Shown here: piece after piece, positions 1 to 34,910 of the stretch | How positions within the stretch are numbered: the first letter of the stretch is position 1 | Layout: each line of letters begins with the position of its first letter | IMG/VR virus record: IMGVR_UViG_3300005613_000019 | Span: 33,992 to 97,991 of that record | DNA: 64,000 nt | Reading direction: 5' to 3' (one strand) | DNA from: a virus | The notes under the pieces: model-generated | What the model was told of the DNA's origin: nothing | Databases searched by the model: none | Seen by the model: the letters and a program-made list of their open reading frames with translations, nothing else | Translations under genes and position numbers: made by a program

Positions 1-274
1 CATATTGTGTTATTGCTCCAGTAACAACAGTAAGAGCAGAAGCTGCACCTTGTGAGGCACCACCTATATGAGTAGATGTAGAATCAAAAGGCGTACCGTT
101 CCATCTTCCACCTAACAAAATTTCATAAGTAAGATCATCGACCAAAACAGGTTGCGTTGATTTTACAGATATTGAAACATTTCTAAATGGCATACTGGAA
201 GGTGCATCCCACAATCTAGCAGTACCAGCTGCCGCTATAGAAAGAGTTTTTGTAATTTGCCTGTATTGACCCAT
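1..274 (-). CDS. Putative virion structural protein, partial (runs off window start)
   Basis: ATG at 274 with GGAG RBS; frame MGQYRQITKTLSIAAAGTARLWDAP... stays open to base 1; late-promoter motif upstream (314-337). Confidence 0.6.
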   Translation of the reverse strand, partial: MGQYRQITKTLSIAAAGTARLWDAPSSMPFRNVSISVKSTQPVLVDDLTYEILLGGRWNGTPFDSTSTHIGGASQGAASALTVVTGAITQY

Positions 275-313
275 AATAATCTCCTTTAAAAGTTAGATCT
301 ATACCGTTATTCT

Positions 314-337
314 ATTTTATCAGATTTATATTTGGAA
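314..337 (-). promoter_or_regulatory. Putative late promoter CCRA-N12-TAnnnT
   Basis: Minus strand TTCCAA-atataaatctga-TAAAAT; same arrangement at six other late-gene starts. Confidence 0.6.
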
Positions 338-353
338 AGTTAAATTTTAAGAA

Positions 354-1208
354 TTAAAGATCATCATCTTCTTCAGAAGTAAGATCATCAAGAAACTTAT
401 TAGCAAAGTTTTTAACGCTCTTATAAACACCCTTAGTAGAAATATATTCCCAATCTTCTAAAGAAAGTTCTGGTAAAAGCATTTCTAGTTCTTCTACAAA
501 ATCTCCAGCTTTAATCCTCATAGGACCTTGATCACGAGAAGCTTTATGACACAACCCTACAACAGTAGGATTAATCTCAATAGCTTTCTCAGCTTTTTCC
601 ATAGCATCCTCTAACTCTGAAGCACGTTGTCTTTGTAACCTATCAGAAGGCATTTCCTCCTTATTTTGCAACCCACTCTTAAGCTTAAGAGCCTTACCAA
701 GCTCATAATCAAACGTTGTATTATTTCTATCCGCAATACGTTCATAATATTCAATATACTCATCTTCAGTAATAGTTCTCAGAGCTTGAGGAGACCTAGT
801 AACTAACTTACGAAAATCAGGACTTGTTTTAATAACCTCAATAGGAACCTCATTGGTCAAATTATAAGGTCTTCGAGTCTTAGGAATAATAACATGATAT
901 TCATCACCACCTAATCCTTTAAAGGAAATAGATATTTGTGAATTAAGCATATTTTGAACAAAAATTTCAGAATTTTCAGTAAAATATTTAGAAAAATTAA
1001 CAATAAGTTTACTTCTTTTACTTGTCGTTTGTTTAGGAATAGTCATATAATCATCTCCAACTTCTCCCTTTAATTGTAAAATAAAAGGGTCACGGCAAAA
1101 CACTTTAGCTTTACCTTTTTTTATTAATATACGCGATTTAGCTGGATTTGTATAAGATAAAAACTTATTATTAGAATCTAATACAGGAATATTATTATCT
1201 TTACCCAT
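354..1208 (-). CDS. Post-capsid protein with N-terminal PLMP/RRXRR-like domain
   Basis: Residues about 7-47 (IPVLDSNNKFLSYTNPAKSRILIKKGKAKVFCRDPFILQL) follow the IscB N-terminal pattern; no RuvC/HNH motifs; internal GGAG-N7-ATG at MTIPKQ. Confidence 0.65.
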   Translation of the reverse strand: MGKDNNIPVLDSNNKFLSYTNPAKSRILIKKGKAKVFCRDPFILQLKGEVGDDYMTIPKQTTSKRSKLIVNFSKYFTENSEIFVQNMLNSQISISFKGLGGDEYHVIIPKTRRPYNLTNEVPIEVIKTSPDFRKLVTRSPQALRTITEDEYIEYYERIADRNNTTFDYELGKALKLKSGLQNKEEMPSDRLQRQRASELEDAMEKAEKAIEINPTVVGLCHKASRDQGPMRIKAGDFVEELEMLLPELSLEDWEYISTKGVYKSVKNFANKFLDDLTSEEDDDL

Positions 1209-1268
1209 ATTACCAGCCTTCGCTGACCTCTTACTTATAAAACATAAGTAAGGTTTAACTCTTTTTAT

Positions 1269-1321
1269 AAAATAAAGGACAACGGCCAGGGAAAGGAGGG
1301 GGAAACCTGACCGCTGCCCTT
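1269..1321 (-). terminator. Stem-loop/terminator after the capsid gene with a pyrimidine-rich loop
   Basis: 16-bp stem with 3 G-U pairs valid only on the minus strand; loop UUUCCCCCUCCUUUC; followed by UAUUUU. Confidence 0.65.
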
Positions 1322-1333
1322 AAAACCTAATTA

Positions 1334-2530
1334 CTACTTAGAACCCTTAGCAGCAGCTTTAGCATTCGGAGCACCAAAACCAACCATCTCAAGAAACACC
1401 CAACCTTTACGAGTCTCACCAAGAGCATACTTATTATAAGGCTCAGAAAACAGAGAAATACGTTCACCCATCTCACCGAGATAATCAGGGCCGGTACATG
1501 CATAAAAAGTTCCAGCAGGAATGACTTGCTCAACACCTGTACCTGCAGCCGTCAAGATCTGAGCATTTAACAGATTACCAATATGGCCAGCCAAAAGAAG
1601 CTCACGCTCACTAACTGGGTCAACTGCAGTAGACATATTCTTGATAATATCAGAAAGCTCAGCACGATTAATAAGAAATTGCTCTACCAAAAGTCTGTGC
1701 TGCTCAACTTGAAAACGAACATCCTCGAAAGCACCAACTCCCAAAGAAGCAAACGTAGTAGTAGTATTTACAGCAGTAGACAACCTATCAAGAAGATCAA
1801 TACCGAGCTTATCTTCTTGAAGTTCAATCTCCTGACGAGCTGTATCCTGAGCACGCTCCAGAACATCAAAGTTCATTTGATAAATGTCCATAATGTCGAT
1901 AGCCGGAAAAGATGTAATCTTTTGCTCATTCGGAGTGATCCATTTGGTCTTAATCTTGGCTTCAGGAGTTTGACCGTCCTGACCAATGGTATAAGCAACC
2001 GAACGGATGTCTTTCGGGATACGGAACAGTTCGGCCTGGCCGAGCTGACGTACACGATAGATCTTCCTCGAAAAACCCTCGTAATCAAGGATAGCCTTAA
2101 TCGGAAGAGCCAGCTCTTGACCAACCACTCGGAGTCCTTGCTCAGAAGGATCTTTAAGAGCGGCAGCCAAAATCTCACGGCGTTGATCCAAGGAGTAACT
2201 TGCAGATTCAGGAGTAGCAAAAGTCAGGCGACCTGCATTCCTCTTAGTATGGTTATTCAACAGATGAGAAACTTGAACAAGCGCATCACGCTTATCATAA
2301 GCATTAAGCTCACCATCAGAATCAAACATACGACGGGAAGTATCAGACGACGTAACGTTTCTACTAGAATCGTAGTCAAATCCTTGTGGGTTAAAAGTTC
2401 CATTCCCCTCAAAAAGAGATTCGTCTTGCTTATCAGCCATTTTCGTACGAGGACGAACAGCTAAACGACGAGGCTCTTTCGTTTCCTGAGAGGGTGTCTT
2501 TGATGCTAATTTTCTATACGGATTATCCAT
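1334..2530 (-). CDS. Major capsid protein (HK97 fold)
   Basis: 398 aa; follows protease-scaffold-decoration; capsid-like segments (FSRKIYRVRQL..RIPKD, FDVLERAQDTARQEIELQED); TAG-TAA double stop. Confidence 0.85.
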   Translation of the reverse strand: MDNPYRKLASKTPSQETKEPRRLAVRPRTKMADKQDESLFEGNGTFNPQGFDYDSSRNVTSSDTSRRMFDSDGELNAYDKRDALVQVSHLLNNHTKRNAGRLTFATPESASYSLDQRREILAAALKDPSEQGLRVVGQELALPIKAILDYEGFSRKIYRVRQLGQAELFRIPKDIRSVAYTIGQDGQTPEAKIKTKWITPNEQKITSFPAIDIMDIYQMNFDVLERAQDTARQEIELQEDKLGIDLLDRLSTAVNTTTTFASLGVGAFEDVRFQVEQHRLLVEQFLINRAELSDIIKNMSTAVDPVSERELLLAGHIGNLLNAQILTAAGTGVEQVIPAGTFYACTGPDYLGEMGERISLFSEPYNKYALGETRKGWVFLEMVGFGAPNAKAAAKGSK

Positions 2531-2548
2531 AATATATCTTCCTCTCTA

Positions 2549-3340
2549 TTAAATAACCGTTTTGATTCCGATATAAGGATCAGCCGGTGTAGGAATTTGC
2601 ACGCAATATCCAACGGTAGGACCCGAACCAATAGACGAATCAGTAACTAAACCACGAAGAACTTCAGCAGTAGTTCCTGCCAAAACAGCCCCATTAATAG
2701 CCCACGTAGCCGCTGGATCAAACATAGTTGTGTAAATGATAGATCCTGGACCATGAGCAACAGTAACTTTATCAGACTGAATAGTTACATCATCATCAAA
2801 GTTCCAAAAGTTCTTACCATCATCAAGCAATTGTTGAGCAGTAAGAGCGTACTGATAATTAACATACACGTATTCACCATCTGAAATCGTACCACCTCCT
2901 ACACGAGTTACAGTACCATTAGTATAGTCAACAGTATAATCGCTACCTCCACCCTCTGTGTACACTGTACCAGCAGCAGGGTCAGTAGCAACTCGCACTC
3001 CAGCCACTGCTCCAGCAGCTGTTCTAAGATTAGCATGTGCCAAACTAGTAGCCGTAGTACCATTCAATTGAATGTACTCTCCAACCACTGCTCCGTAAAG
3101 AGTCGTAGTCTTATTATACAGAGCCCACCCATAAGGCGAACCAGCTGAACCCAATAAGGCTCCTGTAGTTACATCAACGTTACCATTCGCATCTAACTGA
3201 ACAAGCATTCCAGCTTGAAAAGTAGCTGTGGAAGCAGCAACGTAATCGCCGAACGAGTTGATTACTTGAGAGCGCTGGTGGTCATATCCTCGCTCAATTG
3301 TGTCAACACGAAAGGCTTCTCGTCTAGGTTCTAGTGCCAT
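2549..3340 (-). CDS. Capsid decoration/cement protein
   Basis: Gly/Thr/Ala-rich beta protein between scaffold and capsid genes; FQAGMLVQL and C-terminal VGYCVQIPTPADPYIG. Confidence 0.6.
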   Translation of the reverse strand: MALEPRREAFRVDTIERGYDHQRSQVINSFGDYVAASTATFQAGMLVQLDANGNVDVTTGALLGSAGSPYGWALYNKTTTLYGAVVGEYIQLNGTTATSLAHANLRTAAGAVAGVRVATDPAAGTVYTEGGGSDYTVDYTNGTVTRVGGGTISDGEYVYVNYQYALTAQQLLDDGKNFWNFDDDVTIQSDKVTVAHGPGSIIYTTMFDPAATWAINGAVLAGTTAEVLRGLVTDSSIGSGPTVGYCVQIPTPADPYIGIKTVI

Positions 3341-3372
3341 TTCATATCTCCTCTTGTTAGGTTATCCTACAA

Positions 3373-5238
3373 CTATGCCTTTAGCCTCTTGAGAGCGTTA
3401 CTACGCTTACTCAATCTTGTGTTACCCATAGCTGCTCGAACTCCACCAACTAAATTATTATTTGTGGTAGAGGCATCAGGTCTACCAGTATTTACTTGAA
3501 AATTACCCTCTACAGCAGCCGTCTTTAAATTATCTCTAGACGCAGACTTAAAGGATTCTTCAGAAACTTCAACAGATTTAATATTAAGATTATTAAAATC
3601 AGACTCTAGGTCATTAAGATATTCATCAGATTTCTTCATAAGACCTGCAGTTCTCTCTAACAATATATCAACAAAATCTTCTTGGCCAGTAGAAGCTATC
3701 ATTTCAATAAGTTCACTCGCATCAGATTGCGGCATACCTATATAAGCATCACCATTAGCAAAATTTTGTTGATTAGCTAAAACGTCCATAGAAGCTGCTT
3801 TATAAGGGTTCTCGTCATAATTAAGCAACATTCTAGTAGAAGCAAGTTTAACACATTTTACAAATTTTTTAATAAATTTCTCATTAGCCTCTTTAGCTAA
3901 TTTTTTAGCTTTAGCTGTATAAAGCTTTTTAATATTAGCCTCTACACTCTGAAAATCAACATCAGAGCCTTCCTGAGAAGAATCAGCTGCTTGATCTAAA
4001 GACTCAGTATGAACAGTATCTTCACCTTTCAAAATACTATCAGGCTTACTATCATAATTAGGATCAGTAACAAACTCAGCATCAGATTCAACACCTGCAA
4101 TAACTTTATCATAAGTTTCCTTAGTATTAAACTCAGCACCATCAGGAATAGTCTCAGAAGGATCATCTAAATCATCTTTAACTAAGTCATCCCCATCTTC
4201 ATGTATCGGTTCAGAGGCTTCAGGCGTTAGCATCTCATCAAAAACCGGTTGAACATCATCATCAACACCCGCAATTAAAGTTGTATTAGCACGCTTAGCT
4301 GCAACTTTAGGACCCTCATAAATAATCCAACCATAGATTTGATTAGCTTTTCTCTTAAGATAATCTAAATTAGACTTATCTTTTGGTCTAGCAATAAAAA
4401 GAGGTTTACCCTCAAAAGAAGCTAAAATATCTCTTCTAGGAAGAACTCTAACAGTGACCTTAGAGGCTGTTTTAGGGTCTTTAATACCCATATACTTAAG
4501 ATTTGCATCTTTTTTATCTTCCTCTTTTTTATCTTCCTCTTTTTTATCTTCCTCTTTTTTATCTTCCTCTTTTTTATCTTCCTCTTTTTTATCTTCCTCT
4601 TCCTTCATCTGAGCAACTCTATCCAATAATTCTTCTTTATCAGATTTATCTAAGTCTTTCTTATCTTTCTTATCTTTCTTAAAATCGTCTTTCTTATCTT
4701 CCTTAAAATCGTCTTTCTTATCTTCCTTAAAATCGTCTTTCTTATCTTCCTTAAAATCGTCTTTCTTATCTTCCTTAAAATCGTCTTTCTTATCTTTGTC
4801 CATAGAAGGCTCCATATCAAATTCCAGAGGTTTAATATCAGGTTTAGAATCAATAACCTCTTCAACTGGATTTATTAATTTATCATCAGCAAAAGAACCA
4901 TCCATATCTTTATCAAGACAAGGAAGATCTGACTTCGTATTCATATCAGAACCAAGATCCAAACCTAATGAGGGTTTATCCGAATTAAACTTACCAGAAT
5001 CTTCCAAAAACCTAGAAACCATCATATAAGCATCATCAGGATTTTCAGACATCTTAAGGTCTTCCAACAACTTGTCAAAACCAGGAGGAGCCATCATCGC
5101 ATATTTACGACCAGCAGAATTCAAAAGATCCCTAGTCTCAGATTCAATAATAGATCTCTCAGAGGCTGTTAAAGAAGCTTTACCCTCTTCATGGATATTA
5201 AGAACAGTCTCAAACAGTTTTATCCTGTCAATACTCAT
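3373..5238 (-). CDS. Scaffolding/prohead core protein
   Basis: Highly charged D/E/K low-complexity protein between protease and capsid genes. Confidence 0.65.
   Translation of the reverse strand: MSIDRIKLFETVLNIHEEGKASLTASERSIIESETRDLLNSAGRKYAMMAPPGFDKLLEDLKMSENPDDAYMMVSRFLEDSGKFNSDKPSLGLDLGSDMNTKSDLPCLDKDMDGSFADDKLINPVEEVIDSKPDIKPLEFDMEPSMDKDKKDDFKEDKKDDFKEDKKDDFKEDKKDDFKEDKKDDFKKDKKDKKDLDKSDKEELLDRVAQMKEEEDKKEEDKKEEDKKEEDKKEEDKKEEDKKDANLKYMGIKDPKTASKVTVRVLPRRDILASFEGKPLFIARPKDKSNLDYLKRKANQIYGWIIYEGPKVAAKRANTTLIAGVDDDVQPVFDEMLTPEASEPIHEDGDDLVKDDLDDPSETIPDGAEFNTKETYDKVIAGVESDAEFVTDPNYDSKPDSILKGEDTVHTESLDQAADSSQEGSDVDFQSVEANIKKLYTAKAKKLAKEANEKFIKKFVKCVKLASTRMLLNYDENPYKAASMDVLANQQNFANGDAYIGMPQSDASELIEMIASTGQEDFVDILLERTAGLMKKSDEYLNDLESDFNNLNIKSVEVSEESFKSASRDNLKTAAVEGNFQVNTGRPDASTTNNNLVGGVRAAMGNTRLSKRSNALKRLKA
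4508..4797. repeat. Coding tandem repeats: 15-nt (EEDKK x6) and 24-nt (DDFKEDKK x5)
   Basis: Directly visible at about 4508-4600 and about 4668-4797. Confidence 0.95.
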
Positions 5239-5239
5239 A

Positions 5240-6151
5240 TTATTTACCTTTTTCTGATAGATAGTTATAAATTATACTAGCTAACGAATCAGGAATATCT
5301 TTGGCATACCTAGCCGTAAAAGAAATAATCTCTTGAAGATCTAAATCTTTGCCAGAAGCAGCCTTTCTTGCGATCTCTAGTATACCCTCTTGAATAACAG
5401 CCGTTTTATCAGCAGGATCAGCAACAGCCGATAGTTCCTGGTACACAGTACCCCTACAAAGCTCACCAGCTATTCGATAAGTACCGTCATTCATTTTGTA
5501 TTCTCTATTAGAATACTTGTTTCTAATATGATCACAAAATTCCCAAGTCGTAGTAGCAACATTACCACACACATTACAAACAGTGTCAGCAACATCAGCA
5601 CCCATTGAAAAAGTCTTAATAGCCCCAGATTTATAAGCATCAGCTAACGCAGGATCTTTTGTTTGATCAACAGCTAATACCACTTCAACAAAAACATCAT
5701 TATCAGGAGCAACACCAACAGACTTCATACAAGCCTCTTTAACTTCATCATCAGCAACATTTTCTAAATTCATATGAGAATCTAAAATAACGCCCCTAGC
5801 TACTTCATATCTAGAGGCGTTGTGCTCAACAAAATGAGGCTTATTATTATAAGTTTGATAAGTTCTACACCCAAGCTCTGGACGAAAAGCTACGCTTTCA
5901 TCAAAAGTCCAACCATCTAAATTAGCATTAAACCTTCCAACACTATTAGCTCTGGCAGGTATCAACAAATAATCTGAAGGGTCTCGACTTATCTTATATA
6001 CGTCGGCAACAGCATCAAGTCTCTCTTCTAGATCAATAGACCCACTCTTATTCATATAATAAGACTCAGTCTTAGTAGAAGAAATTTTATTCCAGGAACC
6101 TTTACTCAAAACTCCTAAAATCTCAACTGATGATATTTTCTTAAACGACAT
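5240..6151 (-). CDS. Prohead (capsid maturation) protease with Zn-finger insert
   Basis: HFVEHN, FSMGA, CNVCGN..CDH and ELSAVADPAD motifs; first gene of the capsid operon. Confidence 0.75.
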   Translation of the reverse strand: MSFKKISSVEILGVLSKGSWNKISSTKTESYYMNKSGSIDLEERLDAVADVYKISRDPSDYLLIPARANSVGRFNANLDGWTFDESVAFRPELGCRTYQTYNNKPHFVEHNASRYEVARGVILDSHMNLENVADDEVKEACMKSVGVAPDNDVFVEVVLAVDQTKDPALADAYKSGAIKTFSMGADVADTVCNVCGNVATTTWEFCDHIRNKYSNREYKMNDGTYRIAGELCRGTVYQELSAVADPADKTAVIQEGILEIARKAASGKDLDLQEIISFTARYAKDIPDSLASIIYNYLSEKGK

Positions 6152-6272: not shown

Positions 6273-6704
6273 CTAATCTTTACCAAAAAGAAGTTTTTTA
6301 TTAGTCTCAAATCGTTTTACTGGAATACTAATATCTAAAATTCCATTATTAAATGAAACTTTTGAATTCTCTAAATCTAAATCCCTGTATACCTTAATCT
6401 CATGATGAAACTTACTCCTAAATTTCTCTGAAATATTTTCCCTAGAAGTATTATCAGCCATTATATGCAACTTATCGGCTTCATTCCATACTTTAATATC
6501 AGACTCATCGTACCCAGCTAAAGCAAGCTGAATACTCCAGCCCTTTAAAACATCATCATCACTATCTGGATCAATAATAGGAAACTTGTCCATAGGCGGC
6601 TTAGTTAATGTAGGCCAACTACCAAAAAAGTCGTTGAACAAACAATCAAAATCATTGAACAGGGAAGACATTCTTACGGTTGGATAAACGATTCTCGGTA
6701 ACAT
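6273..6704 (-). CDS. hsp20: Small heat-shock protein (Hsp20/alpha-crystallin)
   Basis: IQLALAGYDESDIKV and VSFNNGILDISIP motifs; 143 aa. Confidence 0.85.
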   Translation of the reverse strand: MLPRIVYPTVRMSSLFNDFDCLFNDFFGSWPTLTKPPMDKFPIIDPDSDDDVLKGWSIQLALAGYDESDIKVWNEADKLHIMADNTSRENISEKFRSKFHHEIKVYRDLDLENSKVSFNNGILDISIPVKRFETNKKLLFGKD

Positions 6705-8507: not shown

Positions 8508-10361
8508 CTACCTCACATCAGAACCACCAGGACCAGGACTATCTAATGACATGTCAGAAGGTCCTGTTCCGTCTGCTGAGCCTGGAGGACCAGCCATACC
8601 TGGTTCCGTATCCCCACCAAGACCTCCACCGCTAGAAGGCAACCCAGACGAACCTGGAGGTCTCGCCCCTCCTCCAGCTGTTCCAGGAGGCTTACCCTTT
8701 TGCATGTTCTTCTGCTCAAATTTGCCCTTTAAACCACCTAATTCTTTATTAAGTATATGCTCCCTCTCAGCAAACTCTTTGGCCGATTTAGTAGTCTCTT
8801 CCTTCCAGTCTAACCCAGCTATAGATCCAACACTGTCTAACGATATGTCAAATCCAAAATTCCTTAACTGAGAATATGCAGTCAATAACTCAGAATCTAC
8901 AGCAGGATCTAACTTGTTCCTCCATTTAAGCCTTGGCTTAATATATAGATTAGAATCCTGCTTCTCCTGAGCAGTCCTCTTAACTCTATATCTGTGAGCT
9001 ACCTCAGAGGGTTTTGACTTGGTCCAATCATTTATCTGAATAATAGGTTGAAAAAACTTCGGGAGTATCCAAGTGTTCTCAAAAAACTGACGCATGGACA
9101 AAAGTCTTCGTAAGAAGACTTGCAATCCGCTCTTGGCAGAGGAAAAGGTTGTCTCCCCCGTCATAAAGCTCTTAGATAAGCCTAGAGCTAAGAGCTTTAC
9201 TTGCTCAATCGTGCTGTGCTCTCGTGAGAGAGTCACAGCACGTTCGTTGATTCCTACAGTCTCGAATTGTATACCATAATTATAAATCAACCACGATCCA
9301 GGATCAATTTCACTCTGCATTAGCAGCCTTTGAAGATTAGCTTCAGCCTCTGGGCCTGGAATCCATCCTGAAGCCTGGTCCCCAATTTTGGCCACTCTTA
9401 ACGGGCTAGCAGCACGCCTAAAAGTTTGGATGGTGGAATTATAGACTGCGTCTTCCACCATCCAAATCCTCCACATACGGCTAGCAAGGCTTACACCCCT
9501 TTCATCATAGGGGTGTAATTTCCTCGGAATATATGAACAATTAAGTGGTGAAAGTCTGATTTTTTGTCTTGCTAAAACTTTTGAAACAAATTCAGAAGGA
9601 AGTTTTTGTCTCAACTCCTGAGACTCAGGAGTTGTATCCAACAACATATTTCTAAGATTATCATCTGGTATAAAATAAATAATTGGATCCATATCAATAA
9701 TAGGAGAATCCTGAATATCAATATAATCTGGATCATGAAAACCTATATAAGACCATTTGTTAGTCTTATCATCAAAAAAATTATGAGGGAGAACCTCACC
9801 CGTTACTAAATACTCTTTAACCATACTTTGTAGTTTTTCTAATAGAAAAACATCATCAGCCATGTCTTCAAGTTCGTTTTTAAGAGTTTGGTCACTTTGA
9901 TTTTCAAGAATGATGTCAAATTCTGAAACCATCATTTGAGAGTACATATCAACGGCAGTACCAAAAACTGGATCATACTTATAAAACATTCTCCAATATT
10001 TATTAGCAACTGCTCGATCATGAGGGTAGAATTGTCTTTCAGGAGAATCAAATTCAGGTAAATAGGGTCTTTGTGTATGAAAATTTGAAGATCCATAACC
10101 TCCAGACATAGATGACCCACCAGTAAAAGGAGCAAACACGTCTGCCTTTTTAGATCCTACAGCTAGAGTATGCCCCTCTGGGAGAACTTCTCTAGCCATT
10201 TCTTGTCTAATAGAATCTTGGTTAGATGTAACCAATCTAGGTTGCATAGACTCAGCTCTGGCCCTCATACGATCCCTAAAATCATCCGAAGCACCAATTC
10301 TCGCGTTAGCTATATTTGATCGTTCTCTGGCTAGTTCTTTAACATCTTTTTTATAGGACAT
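8508..10361 (-). CDS. Portal protein
   Basis: 617 aa; YKYDPVFGTAVD, GVSLASR, PLRVAKIG, LLALGLSKSFMTG; G/P-rich tail; position in head module. Confidence 0.85.
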   Translation of the reverse strand: MSYKKDVKELARERSNIANARIGASDDFRDRMRARAESMQPRLVTSNQDSIRQEMAREVLPEGHTLAVGSKKADVFAPFTGGSSMSGGYGSSNFHTQRPYLPEFDSPERQFYPHDRAVANKYWRMFYKYDPVFGTAVDMYSQMMVSEFDIILENQSDQTLKNELEDMADDVFLLEKLQSMVKEYLVTGEVLPHNFFDDKTNKWSYIGFHDPDYIDIQDSPIIDMDPIIYFIPDDNLRNMLLDTTPESQELRQKLPSEFVSKVLARQKIRLSPLNCSYIPRKLHPYDERGVSLASRMWRIWMVEDAVYNSTIQTFRRAASPLRVAKIGDQASGWIPGPEAEANLQRLLMQSEIDPGSWLIYNYGIQFETVGINERAVTLSREHSTIEQVKLLALGLSKSFMTGETTFSSAKSGLQVFLRRLLSMRQFFENTWILPKFFQPIIQINDWTKSKPSEVAHRYRVKRTAQEKQDSNLYIKPRLKWRNKLDPAVDSELLTAYSQLRNFGFDISLDSVGSIAGLDWKEETTKSAKEFAEREHILNKELGGLKGKFEQKNMQKGKPPGTAGGGARPPGSSGLPSSGGGLGGDTEPGMAGPPGSADGTGPSDMSLDSPGPGGSDVR

Positions 10362-31491: not shown

Positions 31492-32871
31492 TTAGGTAAG
31501 TTCCCAGTTGATTACGGCTGAAGTATCAGCGCAAGTGCTAGCACCGGCTAGCACACGGACAACCCGTATAACGTCACCAGCAACGAAAGCATCAGCAGCT
31601 GCATCAATAGTACCGATTTGAACAGTGGTACCAGCCGCATTATCTAATGTTATAACACCTGTTAGGGCGGTTACCGCATTGATGGTAACATCAAATGTCA
31701 TAGTTTCTGCTACGTCACAACCCGTTCCAGCGATTGCAGCAAAACCTGTAATGTTACCAGCAGCGGGAGCTACCCATTCTACAGTAGTTGCTGTTGCTGC
31801 AGCAGCTTGGAAACTCATACTTGCTCCTGGAGCTGTCCACGCACCAACGGTATCTTCAAGTGTTTCAATTCGAGCATCTTGAGTATGCCATCCAGTACCA
31901 TCGGAGAAAAGTTCAACGCTCGCATTATCGACATTTAGTACCAGATCAACACCAGCGCCTCCATTGTCAATTTCTTCAGTACCATTAGGATCGAGCGTTA
32001 TATTAGCAATAGATGCGTTTCCTACAGCGTCTACAACTTGAATTCGACGTCCAGTAGCACCTACAGCTGTTGGAAGGTCAAGCTCTACTGCACCACCAGA
32101 GGTGTCAACCAACAGGATGTCATCAGCTGCTAATACTGTATAAGGAGAATCTCCAAAAGCCACTGCAGTTTGAGTTAACAAACAATCTAATGCGATGTTA
32201 GCTTCGTTGGTAGTAAGTCTAGTTTCAGCAGCATCCATTCTAGCTTGCTTTGTAAACCAACCTGTTCCGTCAGAAACTAATTCAATTACACCGTAGTCTA
32301 TATCCAAAACAACAGCAACACCTGCACCACCTGAATCAATTTGTTCAGTACCGTTAGGATCAATTGTGATGTTAGCTGTACCGGCATTACCACCACCATC
32401 AACTACCATGTATGTTTTACCTGTAATACCTGAAGCAGTAGGAAGATCTAGTTCTACAGCACCGCCTGAAGTATCTACAACTATACAATCATCAGTAGCA
32501 GCTACAGTATAAGGAGAATCTCCAAAAGCAACAGCTGTTTGATCCGACACTACAACCGCCTGAGCAGAGTCAATCACCCCGTCGTCGTCATCATCATATG
32601 AATCACGAGACATGTCAGAGCCCTCTACCCAAGCAGTAAGCTCATCGGCTGTTACCGTTGTGCCACCGCGAGTAATTGTAACAGTACCAGCGGTAACCCA
32701 AGTAGATAACGTAGTACAAAGTAAATCATTACCTAATAAATCAGAAAGGTTAACATTGACTGTGTTACTTCCAGCTGTCGCTGGAATGTCTATTCTAGGT
32801 TCACCATTATCACCTTCTAAACTAAGATTGTTAGCAGAGGCGTTAGTGACTATGACGTATGTAGCTGCCAT
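31492..32871 (-). CDS. Displaced virion fibre/decoration protein with duplicated beta repeat
   Basis: Two copies of QTAVAFGDSPYTV..VDTSGGAVELDLPTA..GNA..ANIT.DPNGTE.ID..SDGTGW; N-terminus resembles 15413-16804. Confidence 0.75.
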   Translation of the reverse strand: MAATYVIVTNASANNLSLEGDNGEPRIDIPATAGSNTVNVNLSDLLGNDLLCTTLSTWVTAGTVTITRGGTTVTADELTAWVEGSDMSRDSYDDDDDGVIDSAQAVVVSDQTAVAFGDSPYTVAATDDCIVVDTSGGAVELDLPTASGITGKTYMVVDGGGNAGTANITIDPNGTEQIDSGGAGVAVVLDIDYGVIELVSDGTGWFTKQARMDAAETRLTTNEANIALDCLLTQTAVAFGDSPYTVLAADDILLVDTSGGAVELDLPTAVGATGRRIQVVDAVGNASIANITLDPNGTEEIDNGGAGVDLVLNVDNASVELFSDGTGWHTQDARIETLEDTVGAWTAPGASMSFQAAAATATTVEWVAPAAGNITGFAAIAGTGCDVAETMTFDVTINAVTALTGVITLDNAAGTTVQIGTIDAAADAFVAGDVIRVVRVLAGASTCADTSAVINWELT

Positions 32872-32940
32872 TTTTTATACTCCTTCAACTTATGAAGTTT
32901 TTGTTTCAAAGTAAAATTTATAGTTCTAAACTAATAATTT

Positions 32941-32964
32941 ATGATACCATATTAGCTTTTGGAA
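32941..32964 (-). promoter_or_regulatory. Putative late promoter
   Basis: TTCCAA-aagctaatatgg-TATCAT. Confidence 0.6.
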
Positions 32965-33019
32965 TTTTAAAGTTGATAATTTTAAAATTAACAACATATA
33001 TTATTATATACTAACTTTT

Positions 33020-33292
33020 ATGAATAAAAAAGTTTTAAAACAAGCAGCCGTAGATATTAAAGGTGGGAAATGCATCGTTTGTGGTTACAAACGATGCCTT
33101 ACTGCGTTACATTTTCATCACATTGACAAATTTCTTAAAGAAATTGATATAAGTAAGTGCTCAACATGGGAACAGGTTGAGCACGAGTTGTCTAAATGTG
33201 TTCTACTCTGTGCTAATTGTCACGCTGAAGCTCACTCAGGGTTAATTGATTTAGAATTCTTGATTGGGCTTGATGAAGATTTTTCTAGATAG
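33020..33292 (+). CDS. HNH endonuclease
   Basis: GGKCIVCGY..ALHFHH...LLCANCHAEAH. Confidence 0.9.
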   Translation: MNKKVLKQAAVDIKGGKCIVCGYKRCLTALHFHHIDKFLKEIDISKCSTWEQVEHELSKCVLLCANCHAEAHSGLIDLEFLIGLDEDFSR

Positions 33293-33513
33293 TCATAGAG
33301 TTGTAAAATATCTTTTTTATGTTTTGTTATAAAGTTAAATATTTTTTCAAATTCTATATGAGAGCCTTCATATGGAATCCTGATAGGATAATACCATTCT
33401 TTAAGACTTAATTTATATTCATAGTCTAGTGCTTCTTCTTTGCTGCTAAATTGCTTGTTGTCTGAAGTTTTATAATTTATAATTTGTGTAGGTTGTTTAA
33501 TGTTTAGTTTCAT
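33232..33513 (-). CDS. Hypothetical protein
   Basis: YKTSDNKQFSSKEEALDYE; GGAG RBS. Confidence 0.6.
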   Translation of the reverse strand: MKLNIKQPTQIINYKTSDNKQFSSKEEALDYEYKLSLKEWYYPIRIPYEGSHIEFEKIFNFITKHKKDILQLYDYLEKSSSSPIKNSKSINPE

Positions 33514-33527
33514 ACGTTAAAACTCCT

Positions 33528-34910
33528 TTATGCAATTTCTTCAGTGTCTACGAAGTCTGGATCTTGTTTTCTTATCCCTTCAAGTATAGTAAAAGTGTCT
33601 CCTTTCCATTTTAAATTGGACCACATGCTAGGGTGTTCTACTCTTATAACGATGCCCTCTCTAACATGTGTAGGATCTAATGTGGAGGGTCCATCTGTAT
33701 AAGGTCTTAGTTTTGAAACTAAGCCCTCCTTGTCACCATCATATATGAAAGGGTCACAAAGTTGTGGAACAACTTTGTGACCTAGCTGTTCGCACCTAGC
33801 TATTACACTACTAATAGGTAAATCAACTTCATACCCGTCTTCATTAATATGGGCAATTCTGTATACATAAAAATCACAGGTAGGTGGTTCACATCCGTAT
33901 GTGAACCTCATTTGATTTCCATACTTTCTCCTTATGTTTTTATCATCTACTGAATATGAACCCATCAGTAATTGACCACTTTCAGTATGTCCTACAATCT
34001 CATAAAATATAACTTCACCTTTTTGAAGCCCTGTTGATTTTATATGTTCATGTATTTTAGTTCTAAAATGATTTCCGTTGTAATAGCCCTCATATTCTGT
34101 ATCTGGATCTATTACAACTCGTCTAGATCCAGAAACATATTCATAGAACTTGGAACCCTCGTAACGTTTAAGGTCAAAATATCCTAAATTAGTATTTTTA
34201 AGAAATCTTAAAGACTTATGTTTCCTGCTAAGTTTTTTAGTTAGGATACTAAACCTCCAAGATAGATTATTCCAACCAAGTTTAAAAGGGTTAAATTTTA
34301 ATTCTCTTGAACAAATGTAACCACTCCTGCCGGACGAGCCGTGAATTTTTTCGGAGACTGTAATTATACTACCAGGCGGTATTTTATTAATCTCAAATCT
34401 AAGTTGTCTGGTGTCGTAGTGTTCGTGCATATTAGATCTATCTACTTTAATTACGTTCGTTTTGCCATTTTTAGGGTTATTTTTTTTACCTATAGCTCTA
34501 AGAGTAGCTGGGGTATAATACTTTTGACATATTTTTATACCGTTTATAGTGTCGAACTGGTAGCCTTCTACCAGTTCATCTATTTTACCAGTCCATTCAA
34601 AGGATCTTAAGGGTTGCCAAAAGCCCTCTGAAACTTCGCCTCGAAGTTTCAGAGCTTTAACTCTTCCGTTAGTCCCGAAATATCCTCCCATAGGCTCTCC
34701 AGTTTCAGGATTTTTTTTATAGAGGTTATTTTTCATGCAATGGTCATACATGATCATTCCATCAGATAAAAAGAAGACTCCTAGTTCGTCTTCTTTTTGG
34801 TTTAAACCTACTATAATTTGAGATCCTTGAACCGTAGCTAATTTTAGTTTGTCTGCGTTAGGATGCTTTCTTACATTTTTTATTTTACAAACAATTGCTT
34901 GATAAGACAT
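33528..34910 (-). CDS. RNA ligase (DRB0094/Rnl5-like) with N-terminal tRNA-binding OB-like domain
   Basis: KHPNADKL..KLRGEVSEG; motif I EKIHG; YEIVG; FYVY; REGIVIR; LKWK. Confidence 0.85.
   Translation of the reverse strand: MSYQAIVCKIKNVRKHPNADKLKLATVQGSQIIVGLNQKEDELGVFFLSDGMIMYDHCMKNNLYKKNPETGEPMGGYFGTNGRVKALKLRGEVSEGFWQPLRSFEWTGKIDELVEGYQFDTINGIKICQKYYTPATLRAIGKKNNPKNGKTNVIKVDRSNMHEHYDTRQLRFEINKIPPGSIITVSEKIHGSSGRSGYICSRELKFNPFKLGWNNLSWRFSILTKKLSRKHKSLRFLKNTNLGYFDLKRYEGSKFYEYVSGSRRVVIDPDTEYEGYYNGNHFRTKIHEHIKSTGLQKGEVIFYEIVGHTESGQLLMGSYSVDDKNIRRKYGNQMRFTYGCEPPTCDFYVYRIAHINEDGYEVDLPISSVIARCEQLGHKVVPQLCDPFIYDGDKEGLVSKLRPYTDGPSTLDPTHVREGIVIRVEHPSMWSNLKWKGDTFTILEGIRKQDPDFVDTEEIA

Follow-up and report, generated by a model that had tools for sequence, protein, structure and literature searches.

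We analysed a stretch of 64,000 nucleotides from the IMG/VR virus record IMGVR_UViG_3300005613_000019 (positions 33,992 to 97,991), hereafter the window, which is the right-hand part of a viral record that spans 98 kb and is rated 56% complete by CheckV. Directly after the major capsid protein gene lies an open reading frame (ORF) of 284 amino acids, the product of which opens with a PLMP domain as found in the RNA-guided nucleases IscB and IsrB, followed by a flexible linker and a conserved phage protein. Between the capsid stop codon and the start of this long form lie 125 nt of intergenic sequence. The elements of the locus, in the 5' to 3' order of the minus strand, are:

1334 to 2530, minus strand: major capsid protein gene (phrog_2522, E 5.7e-56)
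1275 to 1321, minus strand: hairpin H1 (predicted fold), a 16-bp stem with a 15-nt loop UUUCCCCCUCCUUUC (1291 to 1305), then a U-rich run
1227 to 1252, minus strand: hairpin H2 (predicted fold), a 9-bp stem (1230 to 1252) with a Shine-Dalgarno (SD)-like AAGAGG (1227 to 1232) at its 3' base, preceded by a conserved UAACC motif
1214 to 1225, minus strand: hairpin H3 (predicted fold), CAGC-GAAG-GCUG, between the SD-like tract and the ATG of the long form
354 to 1208, minus strand: long ORF of 284 amino acids (from the ORF list), with PLMP domain, flexible linker and conserved phage body
1047 to 1190, minus strand: PLMP domain, residues 7 to 54, beta-beta-alpha-beta-beta (Pfam PF14239, IscB profile match, fold and hhalign)
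993 to 1061, minus strand: linker, residues 50 to 72, poorly conserved and holding the internal start (predicted local distance difference test, pLDDT, below 50; variable in the alignment except for Met55)
1044 to 1058, minus strand: putative internal start read from the sequence, GGAG (1055 to 1058), an 8-nt spacer and the ATG of Met55 (1044 to 1046)
354 to 1046, minus strand: body or putative short isoform, 230 amino acids, a small beta domain and a helical domain with acidic C-terminus (phrog_17686 family)

The 284-aa protein, the N-terminus of which reads MGKDNNIPVLDSNNKFLSYTNPAKSRILIKKGKAKVFCRDPFILQLK, opens with a true PLMP domain, and nothing of the nuclease or its guide RNA is present. 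Residues 7 to 54 correspond to positions 1 to 48 of the 174-position Pfam family PF14239 (RRXRR) with an E-value of 3.8e-8 and 33.8 bits, the curated cut-off of this family being 25 bits. A profile of 18 homologues matches the PLMP domains of solved IscB structures, best that of TbaIscB (9k30, E 6.9e-7). The AlphaFold model of this part has the layout beta-beta-alpha-beta-beta, and its residues 5 to 52 superpose on IscB and IsrB PLMP domains with Z-scores of 6.1-7.5 and a root-mean-square deviation (rmsd) of 1.3-3.4 A over 45-48 residues, at 30-42% identity. The original prediction, made from the letters of the DNA, had proposed an IscB-type domain at this N-terminus, and profile and structure comparisons bear it out. 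Its further statement that the protein fits the PLMP pattern holds for the fold and the overall sequence pattern, not for the P-L-M-P residues themselves, which read F-L-S-Y in this clade; Leu alone is kept and both prolines are gone. The strand FLSYT is strongly conserved within the clade and different from PLMP. The basic helix PAKAR.L.K.GKA and Arg26, which is invariant across 71 long forms, are features in common with RNA-contacting PLMP domains.

At the level of sequence, the search for the remainder of a nuclease was negative throughout. By sequence, no RuvC was found in the 284-aa protein: the PF14239 match ends at position 48 of 174, the match to the NCBIfam model guided_IscB is confined to the PLMP stretch and reaches 33.6 bits against a cut-off of 175, and the hhalign alignment with a genuine phage IscB (L061, a control with a full RRXRR match and an HNH domain at E 6.6e-12) covers residues 1 to 54 and ends there (probability 95%, E 2e-8). 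No HNH family matches the protein at E<=10, so the predicted absence of both nuclease domains stands by sequence. Likewise, no omega-RNA of the Rfam family HEARO (RF02033) was matched at E<=10 in positions 1-6000 or 1150-1400 of the window; as positive controls, the regions upstream of two true phage IscB genes (L061, L062) score 129 and 139 bits. One might still regard the whole protein as a nuclease-dead, much reduced IsrB derivative, in which a degenerate RuvC fold would make up the small beta domain of the body (beta1-beta3, helices, beta4, helix), its catalytic Asp replaced by the conserved Gln-Asn of VYVQN. Foldseek alignments of the full model to IscB indeed span 102-111 columns, extending past the 48-residue PLMP domain, and the order of secondary structure elements loosely resembles the start of an RNase H fold. 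Yet those alignments have an rmsd of 14-16 A, the body model alone matches no IscB, RuvC or RNase H-like chain, no more than four strands are predicted, and both hhalign and Pfam stop at the end of the PLMP domain. We regard this derivation as very improbable.

What follows the domain was predicted to be an unrelated phage protein of 230 amino acids, and this is what the comparisons return. The family phrog_17686 matches residues 60 to 278 over profile positions 4 to 223 of 225 (E about 1.3e-11 to 2.7e-11), from which it follows that the family begins at the internal Met55. The body is modelled with a pLDDT of 92.7 from a 104-row alignment as two domains, a small beta domain of four strands and a helical one ending in an acidic tail, for which neither Foldseek nor VIA-align gave a convincing relative in the PDB (generic helical-bundle matches at most, Z<=7.0). 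In BFVD it matches uncharacterised proteins of about 205-225 amino acids from the jumbo phages PaBG, Motura and BcepSaruman (Foldseek E 1e-9 for PaBG S5VV81), and in the ESM Atlas only unnamed viral clusters (0.77-0.80). A complex prediction of the PLMP part (residues 1-52) with the body (residues 55-284), based on 71-row alignments, gave a score of 0.00 and says nothing either way.

The cultured jumbo-phage members of phrog_17686 (about 205-240 amino acids) share the body family, but PaBG gp154, Motura gp042 and phiRSL1 ORF299 are devoid of a PLMP domain and are encoded outside the head module, at a distance from the capsid gene and near genes annotated as recombination or repair nucleases. 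In Motura and phiRSL1 the genes that directly follow the capsid gene are no homologues; the homologues are found elsewhere in these genomes. The body homologue is situated just 3' of a gene labelled 'RuvC Holliday junction resolvase' by the depositor in PaBG (112347-114233, L065), just 3' of a gene for a 'recombination endonuclease-like protein' in phiRSL1 (204970-207684, L019), and just 3' of a calcineurin-like phosphoesterase gene, beside the terminase, in Motura (32149-34050, L020). Pfam gives no support to the depositor's RuvC label of PaBG gp156. The genes immediately upstream of the body homologue in PaBG (gp155) and in phiRSL1 (ORF298) show no relationship to one another, no RuvC (PF02075) was found within the 98 kb of the present phage, and the PaBG paper makes no statement on gp154. 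These neighbours are a weak hint that the body may be linked to DNA processing or packaging. In the uncultured 197-kb Virus Rctr197k the homologue (L001, KX853510 60618-61757) is an open frame of 379 amino acids with a GTG start and a long Gln/Gly/Ala-rich insertion within the body, deposited as a misc_feature 'similar to hypothetical protein'.

The combination of PLMP domain and body is widespread. Among 18 near homologues (42-100% identity, 273-286 amino acids), all carry PF14239 and the PLMP domain is the best-conserved part. An exhaustive profile search yielded 365 representatives (50% clustering, E<=1e-3), 145 of them with a good body match, which divide into 84 with a clear PLMP domain, 18 with a diverged one and 43 starting at the body. 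At the level of metagenome loci, 37 of 40 encode the long form, the fusion is retained down to about 20-30% identity, and the upstream neighbour in the 50 loci fetched is nearly always the capsid gene. The genomes hosting this family belong to a large clade of uncultured phages of about 100-200 kb. Between the window and its 81% identical relative L002, the ratio of nonsynonymous to synonymous substitution rates (dN/dS) amounts to 0.036 in the PLMP codons against 0.070 in the body, indicating that purifying selection is stronger on the former. Judged from these comparisons, the PLMP fusion is old and under selection.

The same data bear on another alternative, namely that an IscB or HNH homing element once inserted behind the capsid gene and was later deleted except for its first 50 codons, which stayed in frame with the gene that follows. 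Phage records do contain true IscB genes accompanied by HEARO omega-RNAs (L061, L062). Conservation nevertheless refutes a decaying remnant: among near relatives no part of the protein is better conserved than the extension, its dN/dS is as low as that just given, the domain persists in about 100 diverged clusters and intact stand-alone PLMP genes exist, leaving this origin next to no credence. Of the original view, a conserved and selected module outside any nuclease is supported by the 18 of 18 near homologues, the 37 of 40 loci, about 100 of the 145 representatives and the dN/dS.

The domain is also encoded separately. In a 188-kb contig (L050), PLMP is a 67-aa ORF ending in TAG, and 14 codons further a GGAG-N6-ATG opens the body. 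Genes for a GNAT acetyltransferase, a dCMP/cytidine deaminase and an unknown protein lie between the capsid gene and this split pair (L050 790-2966). In an 88-kb viral contig of a more distant phage (L011, 3965-4180), a 71-aa PLMP-only ORF scores 27.1 bits, above the Pfam cut-off, and ends in TAG-GAG, which is the SD of the major capsid gene (4195 onward), an arrangement for translational coupling. Small proteins of the latter type form at least 14 clusters of 65-78 amino acids in the profile search and those of the L050 type 3-4 clusters, one of them on 16 contigs; both types are conserved over their full length. A search with the window's own PLMP domain as sole query found no small proteins, whereas the profile search did, and scans of viral contigs with short-form proteins as queries gave no matches. 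At a further locus (L060) the body gene follows the capsid gene with no space for PLMP. The occurrence of fused, split and stand-alone forms indicates that PLMP is an autonomous module repeatedly accompanying the same phage genes.

The linker between both parts is where a second start was predicted, written as GGAG-N7-ATG. The GGAG and the ATG are indeed there, but the spacer counts eight nucleotides instead of seven. Met55 is invariant among near homologues amid an otherwise variable, disordered linker with a dN/dS of 0.6-1.0 in more distant pairs. Across 40 of 40 distinct loci the linker contains a Met with an SD-like tract upstream, and in 28 of 32 scored loci the pairing with the anti-SD upstream of this Met is among the best 10% of in-frame positions (median 4%). 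The tract is conserved although the residues it encodes vary (GE.GD, DPRE, RSLEG). Forty-three representative proteins begin exactly at the linker Met, and in L050 the body start stands alone after a stop codon with its own SD. The long forms of many relatives begin with GTG or TTG. In a tree of the body domain, long and short forms intermingle throughout and no fewer than 16 changes are required, which is better explained by one two-start gene, or by frequent fusion and fission, than by many independent losses. It is thus well supported, on comparative grounds, that the gene has two starts, with the long form behind a structured leader and the body alone from a strong, unstructured SD-ATG in the linker, and the gene probably also makes a PLMP-less protein from this internal start. 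The long and short isoforms of the original prediction are in this sense sustained by comparison, through the linker Met with its SD-like tract and through the two parts encoded as separate genes in L050.

The leader in front of the long form is predicted to fold into the three hairpins listed above (fold z -2.76). Hairpin H2 is predicted in nearly all of 25 distinct intergenic regions with differing stem sequences; in most relatives its 3' arm is the SD itself (GGAG or GAGG) and its loop UUCG or GNRA. In a model-based alignment of 15 distinct leaders, 88% of the cells are paired, four of the five modelled pairs of H2 show compensatory changes, and the covariation score was reached by none of 500 shuffles. 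Relatives retain hairpin H3 with variants of the stem and a loop that reads GAAG, GAAA or GAGA. The 25 leaders have a mean fold z of -2.1, and in 17 of them the SD-like tetramer is paired. A covariance model of the leader (R1), run on the 98-kb record with filters off, has one match, the leader itself (E 1.5e-7), followed by a score of 14.5 bits (E 1.1) within a 945-aa ORF; H3 and the pattern YAGCGARRGCTR each occur once in the record. With 36 occurrences against 31 expected, the UAACC motif shows no enrichment in the window. Taken together, a conserved predicted RNA structure covers the ribosome-binding site of the long form in most loci.

Hairpin H1 stands somewhat apart and looks mainly like a terminator of the capsid gene. 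Its loop motif CCUCCUUU is kept in eight relatives with 45-82% protein identity (L002, L003, L004, L006, L021, L022, L027, L048), and in more distant relatives the stem is present without the loop motif or U-run. The loop UUUCCCCCUCCUUUC is unusually large and mimics the 3' end of 16S rRNA (the anti-SD); a pairing with either the SD of the PLMP gene or the internal one is conceivable. A separate observation concerns the first codons of the gene: between the two closest genomes, the window (1047-1208, minus strand) and L002, the proportion of synonymous differences (pS) is 0.35 in the PLMP codons and 0.72 in the body, about half, a hint of extra constraint at the RNA level at the 5' end of the gene.

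The locus is the downstream end of a head module at the left end of the window, in which the minus strand encodes, in this order, portal, Hsp20-like protein, prohead protease, a 621-aa protein, a 263-aa protein, the major capsid protein and the 284-aa ORF. Besides the genes given above, it contains:

8508 to 10361, minus strand: portal gene, head module
6273 to 6704, minus strand: Hsp20/alpha-crystallin-like gene (phrog_432, E 5e-11), between the portal and protease genes
5240 to 6151, minus strand: prohead protease gene, head module
3373 to 5238, minus strand: gene for a repeat-rich protein of 621 amino acids in scaffold position, head module

The capsid protein is 55% identical to that of Virus Rctr197k and 26-29% identical to those of the jumbo phages Motura, phiRSL1, Lu11 and BcepSauron. 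The 621-aa protein in scaffold position has no match in the PHROG comparison and contains long acidic/basic tandem repeats (KDDFKED six times, then KKEED six times).

Which role the PLMP domain plays here may be approached from solved structures, the sole source of the activities known for it. In DtIsrB the domain is packed against RuvC and TI and binds the tandem 3' hairpins SL7 and SL8 of the omega-RNA; the SD of isrB itself is part of SL7, for which the authors suggest a role in expression control (PMC9581776). In OgeuIscB the domain recognises the terminal hairpins mainly without sequence specificity (PMC9640706). Similar to SL7 and SL8, which lie upstream of the start of isrB, the phage gene is preceded by a hairpin that carries or abuts the SD and by a second small hairpin. 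This identical order of SD-bearing hairpin, small hairpin, start codon and PLMP domain favours binding of the leader by the long isoform. We propose that the domain would keep its known activity, clamping the base of small terminal RNA hairpins beside an SD as in IsrB, and would here grip H2 and H3 across the ribosome-binding site of its own gene. In this way the long isoform would hold down its own production, or fasten the protein to this late mRNA, and the ratio of long to short isoform would be set for a late head-module protein. That the long isoform binds its own leader and so limits its synthesis relative to the short form, a form of the regulation of the upstream structured RNA that the original prediction had raised as possible, is the explanation we favour, by analogy with IsrB and tentatively, as it falls somewhat short of being probable.

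Several observations weigh against it. The P-L-M-P residues that contact RuvC and omega-RNA in IscB are the ones replaced by F-L-S-Y. The leader has no match to any Rfam family, HEARO included (1-6000, 1150-1400), and small tetraloop hairpins near start codons are common, so descent of the leader from an omega-RNA cannot be claimed. In the window the AAGAGG lies 18 nt from the ATG with its first half alone inside H2; given this position, H3 is probably important for the distance. Where other genes lie between the capsid and PLMP genes (L032/L031, L050), the PLMP domain is kept without a recognisable H2/H3-like leader, and next to no leader precedes the stand-alone PLMP gene of L011. Furthermore, PLMP in IscB and IsrB is a protein-protein scaffold against RuvC and TI as well, making a role other than RNA binding equally available.

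This last point underlies the main rival explanation, according to which PLMP is a protein-protein docking module and the long isoform a minor variant of a head-assembly or packaging-associated protein, attached by its extra domain to another phage protein, for instance the capsid, the portal or a nuclease, the hairpins being ordinary intercistronic control of the capsid operon. The packing of the IsrB domain on RuvC and TI is extensive and its deletion abolishes activity (PMC9581776). A docking role is likewise suggested by the position of the gene, which in most loci follows the capsid gene immediately within the head module, by the translational coupling of the stand-alone PLMP gene of L011 to the capsid gene, by the loci with PLMP but no leader, and by the strand FLSYT, strongly conserved yet unlike PLMP as would be expected of a new partner surface. 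However, the body homologues of Motura, phiRSL1 and PaBG do without PLMP outside the head module, and Arg26 with the basic helix is what RNA-contacting PLMP domains have in common. Docking in head assembly is the main competitor, though in our estimate a rather unlikely one.

A third role would be exerted in trans. In structure, PLMP resembles the N-terminal domain of IF3 (Hirano et al., PMC9581776), and the phage protein could be a factor akin to this IF3 domain that changes which start sites host ribosomes choose late in infection. The model has weak Foldseek matches to IF3 in 30S initiation complexes (5lmn_X, 9a5a_B; E 1.5-1.7 over 48-49 columns), and the GTG and TTG starts of many long forms in relatives are in line with such a factor. 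Those matches are nonetheless far below significance, and neither the fusion to the body nor the linkage to the capsid gene is explained, so that we hold this role to be improbable.

Returning to leader binding by the long isoform, its components have separate precedents. In T7 gene 4A/4B and lambda C/Nu3 an in-frame internal start gives two proteins, the short one being the C-terminal part of the long one. The phage gene resembles them in having a second SD-ATG within one frame, its two products being deduced from conservation; it differs in that what the long product has in addition is a domain taken over from RNA-guided nucleases. In T4 gene 38 a hairpin between SD and start codon shortens their effective distance, and autoregulatory operators that sequester the SD are known. 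The 12-nt H3 between AAGAGG and the ATG, 18 nt apart, is comparable to the former, and the SD in the 3' arm of H2 in most relatives to the latter. The present leader is specific to this gene and occurs once in the genome.

Compared with IscB and IsrB (PDB 9K30, 9K2Z, 8DMB, 7XHT, 7UTN), the phage protein has the fold and the pattern V.VLD......T.PAKAR.LLK.GKA.V....PF.I.L in common, likewise at the very N-terminus. In contrast, it has none of their RuvC, bridge helix, HNH, WED and TI domains, its PLMP residues are now FLSY, and its PLMP domain is fused to, or lies beside, an unrelated phage protein. Whereas IscB and IsrB have an omega-RNA of about 200-400 nt upstream, the phage gene has its 125-nt intergenic space without a HEARO match, and it occupies a fixed place in the head module instead of an IS200/IS605 element. 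PLMP without RuvC is reportedly also found in IshB, which Altae-Tran et al. in 2021 are said to have described as a small PLMP and HNH protein; IshB retains its HNH nuclease, the phage protein has none. PLMP is otherwise known solely as a part of IscB, IsrB and IshB; our literature search found no report of it in a phage head module or without a nuclease. The architecture is thus a real and apparently unpublished one of a known domain.

The strong selection under which PLMP is kept in a large and diverse family, whether fused, adjacent or stand-alone, implies that the domain has a function of its own. In a wider and more speculative reading, which we consider doubtful, PLMP together with a pair of small hairpins at a ribosome-binding site would be a portable RNA-protein module independent of RNA-guided nucleases. 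In big phages it would act as a self-limiting translational switch or an mRNA tether setting the ratio of long to short form, and stand-alone phage PLMP genes could be the kind of source from which the IscB/IsrB domain came, or an early escape. If this holds, the unexplained origin of PLMP would be opened to testing. For tests of what PLMP recognises, the locus offers a simple system, some 50 residues with some 55 nt of RNA, and it bears on the control that IscB and IsrB may exert on their own expression and on the source of PLMP in the Cas9 lineage. For phage biology, it adds a conserved gene with two putative starts and, ahead of the late gene that follows the capsid gene, a conserved structured leader.

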